A DNA stretch of 555 nt, taken from sequence record EF517106.1. The stretch is one strand, 5' to 3'. A program made the position numbers and the translations under genes. The notes beneath the pieces were generated by a model. That model ran no database searches, was not told where the DNA came from, and saw nothing but the letters and a program-made list of their open reading frames with translations. The first letter of the stretch is position 1, and the number at the start of each line of letters is the position of its first letter. This document shows, piece after piece, positions 112-555 of this stretch. The stretch is from a phage.

Positions 112-261
112 ATGTTTCGCTTATTGTTGAACCTACTGCGGCATAGAGTCACCTACCGATTTCTTGTGGTACTTTGTGTTGCCCTTGGGTACGCATCTCT
201 TACTGGAGACCTCAGTTCACTGGAGTCTGTCGTTTGCTCTATACTCACTTGTAGCGATTAG
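112..261 (+). CDS. 19.5: Small hydrophobic protein of 49 aa, T7 gene 19.5 homolog; function not established to my knowledge
   Basis: Seen: ATG 112-114 to TAG 259-261 translates to MFRLLLNLLRHRVTYRFLVVLCAALGYASLTGDLSSLESVVCSILTCSD. It has a strong RBS, a basic N-terminus (R3, R10, H11, R12, R16) and a hydrophobic core (FLVVLCAALGYASL). Recognition: the length and its position 240 bp before the terminal repeat match T7 gene 19.5 as I remember it (about 39389-39538). Confidence 0.9.
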   Translation: MFRLLLNLLRHRVTYRFLVVLCVALGYASLTGDLSSLESVVCSILTCSD

Positions 262-500
262 GGTCTTCCTGACCGACTGATGGCTCACCGAGGGATTCAG
301 CGGTATGATTGTATCACACCACTTCATCCCTATAGAGTCAAGTCCTAAGGTATATCCATAAAGAGCCTCTAATGGTCTATTCTAAGGTCTATACCTAAAG
401 ATAGGCCATCCTATCAGTGTCACCTAAAGAGGGTCTTAGAGAGGGCCTATGGAGTTCCTATAGGGTCCTTTAAAATATACCATAAAAATCTAAGTGACTA
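262..500. promoter_or_regulatory. Non-coding unique region between gene 19.5 and the terminal repeat; probable cis-acting packaging/concatemer-maturation signal region (pac-type) of a T7-like phage
   Basis: Seen: no ORF longer than 22 codons and none with an RBS; dense reiterated short motifs (CCTAAGG/CCTAAAG/CATAAAG, GGTCTAT, AGGGTCTT) and the palindrome CCTATAGG. Established knowledge, recalled not verified: in T7/T3 the sequences just left of the right terminal repeat are needed in cis for concatemer processing and packaging. The exact pac boundaries are not something I can place from sequence. Confidence 0.45.
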
Positions 501-555
501 TCTCACAGTGTACGGACCTAAAGTTCCCCCATAGGGGGTACCTAAAGCCCAGCCA
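501..555. repeat. First 55 bp of the T7-type direct terminal repeat (continues past the window end)
   Basis: Recognition: TCTCACAGTGTACGGACCTAAAGTTCCCCCATAGGGGGTACCTAAAGCCCAGCCA matches the start of the T7 genome / terminal repeat as I recall it. The 240 bp distance from the gene 19.5 stop agrees with T7 coordinates (TR-R start about 39778). The second copy is not in the window, so the repeat itself cannot be demonstrated here. Confidence 0.8.
526..538. repeat. GC inverted repeat CCCCC-ATA-GGGGG inside the terminal repeat (potential 5-bp stem, 3-nt loop hairpin)
   Basis: Seen directly: CCCCC at 526-530 and GGGGG at 534-538 are perfectly complementary around the ATA loop at 531-533. It is flanked on both sides by CCTAAAG heptamers (517-523 and 541-547). 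Any function is inferred. Confidence 0.6.

Follow-up and report, generated by a model that had tools for sequence, protein, structure and literature searches.

Which base of this locus becomes the left end of the mature phage genome, and does unique sequence give way there to a terminal repeat, as a reading of the letters alone had proposed for the step between positions 500 and 501? The stretch of phage DNA that we analysed (555 nt, hereafter the window) aligns end to end and ungapped with positions 39278-39832 of the bacteriophage T7 genome V01146 (six mismatches, 98.9% identity), and this homology to the T7 right-end region includes both gene 19.5 and the non-coding region in front of the repeat. 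The T7 reference (V01146 / NC_001604) is reportedly the sequence of Dunn and Studier from 1983. We regard it as highly probable that the window comes from the right-end region of the genome of a T7 lineage with six point mutations, and that 500/501 is the inner edge of its repeat; none of our results speaks against this identification. Followed from left to right, the window would begin 49 nt past phiOR, a promoter and origin (the promoter is annotated at T7 39229 in V01146, i.e., 49 nt before the window start), cross gene 19.5 and the non-coding DNA in front of the repeat, and stop after the first 55 nt of the repeat (Table 1). Gene 19.5 is annotated at V01146 39389-39538, equivalent to window 112-261, and its product matches phrog_2193 (E = 5.9e-25). 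An Rfam scan of the window returned a chance-level match only (E = 0.94), and a promoter and terminator scan of the same 555 nt found nothing above expectation.

Table 1. Features of the window, given in window coordinates.
Feature	Position	Strand	Description
Gene 19.5	112..261	+	ORF in the window; 49-aa protein, function unknown, last T7 gene
Imperfect inverted repeat	291..331	.	About 15 pairs (hairpin or cruciform); 170-210 nt left of the terminal repeat
Repeat-rich spacer, poorly conserved	346..462	+	CCTAAAG-like heptamers; indels between T7 and T3 groups
Conserved 38-nt island directly left of the cut	463..500	+	Sequence GGTCCTTTAAAATATACCATAAAAATCTaAGTGACTA; conservation, T7 versus T3 groups
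Unique/terminal-repeat boundary	500..501	.	T7 39777/39778; in a concatemer becomes the mature left end, 5' sequence TCTCACAGTG...
First 55 nt of the 160-nt direct terminal repeat	501..555	+	Identical to both T7 repeat copies

The position of the boundary follows from the two ends of the reference genome. Positions 501-555 are 100% identical to T7 1-55 and to T7 39778-39832 (E = 8e-21 for the 55-mer), in agreement with the earlier proposal that position 501 corresponds to base 1 of mature T7. In V01146, the first 160 nt recur exactly as the last 160 nt, and no longer prefix does so; the right copy of the repeat therefore begins at 39778, which is window 501. It is this exact 160-bp direct terminal repeat of the T7 reference that makes 500/501 the boundary of unique sequence and repeat, with the exact repetition at the opposite end read from the reference and repeat bases 1-55 covered by the window itself. 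On this comparison of sequences, the assignment of 500/501 as unique/repeat boundary is confirmed to the base.

Other phage records place the edge identically. The 55-mer 501-555 was found at 237 places in 133 phage records, so that about 104 of these records hold two copies of it; its best place is record bases 1-55 in most of the matches listed and the right-hand copy in two, and some records with a single repeat copy, GU071091 (39,778 bp) among them, have the counterpart of window 500 as their last base. PV223880 carries an annotated 160-nt feature whose first base is the match to window 501. The motif that flanks the left repeat edge, ...AAAAATCTGAGTGACTA followed across the boundary by TCTCACAGT, is present at 484-509 with a single substitution (G492A). 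Within the repeat, 501-555 has the heptamer CCTAAAG twice without mismatch, as well as a CCCCC-ATA-GGGGG dyad that appears in the predicted fold of this segment, yet the segment folds no better than its shuffles.

Could the site nevertheless be a cohesive-end (cos) or a headful (pac) site instead of the edge of a direct terminal repeat? The terminology in use might suggest so, given that a "cohesive-end site" is listed in four records of recombinant T7 (PV223880-PV223883), where in PV223880 it is the 160-nt segment in question, and that one paper loosely terms T7 packaging a "cos mode" (PMC3896407). We nonetheless consider this reading extremely improbable. A cos site would be a single-copy site with short overhangs and without redundancy, whereas the 160 identical bp at both ends of the T7 reference amount to terminal redundancy, not to a short overhang of one strand. 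Published read-start analysis likewise classes T7 as a short direct-terminal-repeat phage, with ends that are fixed on both strands and lie 160 nt apart (tau 0.47 and 0.51; PMC5557969), and fixed termini on both strands with tau about 0.5 are not the variable, permuted ends of headful packaging (PMC5557969). As an aside on annotation, the feature at PV223880 35857-36016 is a mislabelled 160-bp direct repeat, and PV223881-PV223883 list the same label.

The sequence-only reading had named two observations that would speak against its view, namely a missing second copy and permuted headful ends. For T7, both are at odds with the reference sequence and with the published read-start analysis (PMC5557969), and the interpretation of 500/501 is supported. 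Where the boundary lies, how long the repeat is and what problem its processing poses are already known, textbook T7 biology, to which our confirmation adds nothing new. The terminal repeat and the concatemer junction of T7 have been known since the early 1980s, i.e., for more than forty years, and serve as routine packaging cassettes in T7 phagemids. The value of the assignment is one of annotation, in that the contig is T7 and its right repeat begins at window 501.

A related question is whether anything about the source molecule follows from the fact that the window reads on from unique sequence into repeat. In mature linear T7 DNA, the junction 500/501 is internal and uncut, 160 bp from the right end. 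A mature end, a concatemer and a collapsed assembly are identical for 160 nt past the boundary, of which the window covers 55 nt; because it ends 105 nt before the point of divergence, the three contexts are indistinguishable from the window. The earlier treatment of the read-through as a possible hint of a concatemer or a collapsed assembly needs one correction: such records do exist, but neither origin is needed, since every mature T7 genome has the junction 39777/39778.

We consider it less likely than not that the window stems from a read of a concatemer or from an assembly that was circularised or collapsed, in which case 501-660 would be the sole copy of the repeat and be followed by left-end unique sequence beginning with ATCTGTTACAG... 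Permuted assemblies with a single repeat copy are available for T7 itself (OZ035731; 39,778 bp), for Salmonella phage C2 and for Yersinia phage WW2, and all three carry the same junction internally; as in T7 and 13a, their repeat is directly followed by ATCTGTT, a class II T7 RNA polymerase pause signal that would be located 106 nt beyond the window end and that is labelled "concatemeric junction" in the 13a record. Nothing in the window demands such an origin, however, and its colinearity with the mature right end of V01146 is just as good; the window ends at repeat base 55, and the identity of the boundary at 500/501 is unchanged either way. We would expect a complete record to contain 105 more bases after window 555 and to start with TCTCACAG. 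A record of the mature genome would then end ...TGTGTCCCT, while a concatemer or a collapsed assembly would show ATCTGTTACAG next.

The boundary is shared far beyond T7. We compared ten phages of the Studiervirinae from six genera (T7, 13a, phiA1122, T3, phiYeO3-12, SH2, Klebsiella GP-5, K11, K1F and gh-1), anchored on repeat starts that were either annotated or computed from prefix/suffix identity, and found the boundary at the homologous base in 10/10 of them, with repeat lengths ranging from 148 to 243 nt (178 nt in K1F). Ends of T3 determined by NGS begin TCTCATAGTT... (PMC3896407), and this start agrees with the homologous boundary in our alignment. Across the phages, the left flank reads ...CCTTTAA(A/G)AAT.T.AC.A.AAAAATCT(G/A)A(G/A)TG..TA and continues over the boundary with TCTCA(C/T)AGT..., and the motif CCTTTAAGAAT...AAAAATCTGA(G/A)TG to the left of the boundary is also found in gh-1 and has diverged in K11. 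The true prefix/suffix repeat of 13a is 170 nt long and starts TCTCAC. Its right repeat is misannotated as 164 nt (EU734174 38678-38841), 6 nt off.

How conservation is distributed around the cut was assessed in an alignment of the T7 and T3 groups that extends from the stop codon of gene 19.5 to repeat base 55. Columns are invariant at 31/41 positions of the inverted repeat (291-331), at 10/14 positions of 332-345, and at 38/117 positions of the spacer (346-462), where indels also occur; the share is again 25/38 directly left of the boundary (463-500) and 21/30 over the first 30 nt of the repeat (501-530). This uneven conservation puts the boundary mid-way in a conserved non-coding island (463-530), and a second such island at 291-345 holds the inverted repeat. 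Such a map sums up the conservation of the pre-repeat region neatly, but it is probably already familiar to specialists. Judging from the alignment, the island 463-530 most likely positions the break at 500/501, and we infer that its part left of the cut, 463-500, is a candidate element through which the site of left-end processing is recognised or positioned.

The six differences between the window and T7 are all G:C-to-A:T transitions, five of them C-to-T on the + strand (117, 179, 312, 355 and 381) and one G-to-A (492), and none is located within 501-555. Among the substitutions of natural relatives, 36% belong to this class, giving a rough probability of 0.002 for six out of six. None of the six (0/6) is common to 13a, phiA1122, C2, WW2 or the other T7 records that we compared. 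No record in the phage collection is more than 98.9% identical over the full length of the window, and a 32-mer that spans the boundary with the private A at 492 had no match in viral_contigs, metagenome_contigs or genome_contigs. At a probability of ~0.002, the uniform spectrum probably reflects a mutagenised or deaminase-exposed lineage or an altered sequence; it suggests that the window comes from a chemically mutagenised or deaminase-exposed laboratory lineage of T7, or that its sequence was altered deliberately. Isolate K115 (AY264776), which we take to be a mutagen-evolved T7 line, has a similar substitution density in this region and shares none of the sites.

A mutant lineage might also differ from wild-type T7 in its true terminus or repeat length, in which case 500/501 would not be its boundary. 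The substitution at 492 gives some reason for concern, being inside the conserved island and 9 nt from the cut, as do deposited mutant T7 clones with small indels inside the repeat and the 6-nt offset of the annotated right-hand repeat in 13a. Yet the 13a offset is an annotation slip, given its real repeat of 170 nt from TCTCAC; the A at the column of 492 is a natural allele in phiYeO3-12, whose boundary sits at the homologous base; and positions 493-555 of the window are identical to T7. We therefore judge a shifted terminus very unlikely and retain 500/501 as the edge of the repeat in this lineage as well.

What is known of T7 packaging indicates how the boundary would be turned into a genome end. 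Concatemers contain one copy of the repeat per junction, which is duplicated during packaging (PMC5000459; PMC1828717). Initiation of packaging requires transcription by the phage RNA polymerase; as part of termination, the repeat is selectively replicated and DNA is cleaved from the concatemer (PMC1828717). According to the literature, the pause site at the junction belongs to the class II signals, with a 7-base motif that is strictly conserved, and plasmids that carry phiOR together with the concatemer junction are packaged. Duplication of the repeat has been modelled as extension from staggered nicks (PMC5557969), and a hairpin intermediate is the alternative model in the literature.

Applied to this locus, genomes would be joined head to tail into concatemers during infection, so that each junction would comprise right-end unique sequence, the repeat and left-end unique sequence in this order. 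As described in the literature, T7 RNA polymerase, transcribing rightward (presumably from phiOR and upstream promoters), would pause at ATCTGTT just past the repeat and engage the gp18/gp19 terminase, and maturation would start. The repeat would be duplicated either by extension of nicks staggered between its two edges or by way of an intermediate primed from a hairpin, and a strand break at 500/501 would create the left end of the next genome, 5' TCTCACAG... Under the nick-extension scheme, this break would presumably be on the top strand and leave a 3' OH at base 500, whose extension across the repeat would complete the left genome, while the 5' TCTCAC... end would go to the right genome. 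That the left end of the concatemer-derived genome is made at 500/501, as had been proposed from the sequence, is in line with the T7 literature, and the conservation around the site is consistent with it.

Is the cut defined by structure or by sequence? DNA folding of 470-530, 440-500 and 501-555 gave energies no better than those of shuffled sequences (z about 0). A structure-defined cut site at 500/501 is therefore unsupported, with local folds at shuffle level, and the site appears to be sequence-defined. We also considered a GTGA-N5-TCAC dyad centred on base 500 and rejected it, as the pair is broken in SH2 and GP-5; T3 and phiYeO3-12 change both outer bases together.

Within the island, T7, T3 and gh-1 have all conserved an ATCT(G/A)A(G/A) motif (488-494) that stops 6-8 nt short of the boundary. 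Its ATCTG(A), with an end 8 nt left of the boundary, resembles the core of the class II pause signal ATCTGTT past the other edge of the repeat. The 38-nt island, whose conservation reaches from coliphage T7 to Pseudomonas phage gh-1, might thus act as a second and weaker element that positions the polymerase or is recognised by the terminase, and in this way set the timing of the left-end nick and of repeat duplication, though we give this idea little credence. If the island were an element of this kind, G492A would hit its core, at the very column where phiYeO3-12 naturally carries A.

The sequence further upstream has two features of its own. CCTAAAG-like heptamers are over-represented on the + strand at 329-547, before and inside the terminal repeat: the whole window contains 13 matches with at most one mismatch as compared to 2.4 expected, and 0/200 shuffles reached 13. 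The inverted repeat at 291-331, which the T7, T3 and K11 groups all retain, has a predicted DNA fold of -7.2 kcal/mol (z = -2.8). Across nine sequences, both bases of 4/15 of its pairs differ between the T7 and T3 groups while pairing is kept, as expected of compensatory changes, and its outer AGGGAT/ATCCCT stem is invariant, K11 included. Chung, Nardone and Hinkle (1990) are said to have located a processing intermediate, the "hairpin", at a short inverted repeat on the left side of the concatemer junction. We presume that the inverted repeat at 291-331 is a candidate for the one of this published T7 intermediate, which we offer as a lead and not as a finding.

Deposited mutants of T7 bear on the role of this hairpin. 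The clones T7_180S and T7_190L have a 189-bp deletion between 9-bp direct repeats, ATAGAGTCA, located at window 143-151 and 332-340 (span 143-340, corresponding to T7 39420-39617). The deletion removes two thirds of gene 19.5 together with the entire inverted repeat, and both clones keep the sequence from 332 to the repeat, small indels aside. As both were deposited as complete phage genomes, the inverted-repeat hairpin appears to be dispensable for growth. The main text of the CiPGr genome-reduction paper does not list the MZ3752xx accessions of mutant clones.

Compared to its relatives, i.e., the T3 group (T3 with a repeat of 231 bp, phiYeO3-12 with 232 bp, SH2 and GP-5), K11, K1F and gh-1, T7 has its boundary at the homologous base. 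The repeat start TCTCA(C/T)AGT is common to all except gh-1, whose repeat begins CCTCTCAAGG, and most relatives have repeats that end ...GTCCCT, from which K1F and gh-1 differ. An ATCTGT-type signal follows the repeat of each relative where this was checked. To the left of the boundary, an AAAAATCTGA(G/A)TG-like motif is present in the T3 group and gh-1 but has much diverged in K11 and K1F, and the spacer between hairpin and repeat varies in length and sequence between T7 and the T3 group or other relatives. With the cos sites of lambda-type phages, the T7 boundary has in common that the ends are fixed, specified by sequence and cut from concatemers by terminase. Lambda-type cos ends, however, carry single-stranded overhangs of 10-19 nt without terminal redundancy, whereas those of T7 are flush and come with a 160-bp duplication that packaging must synthesise.
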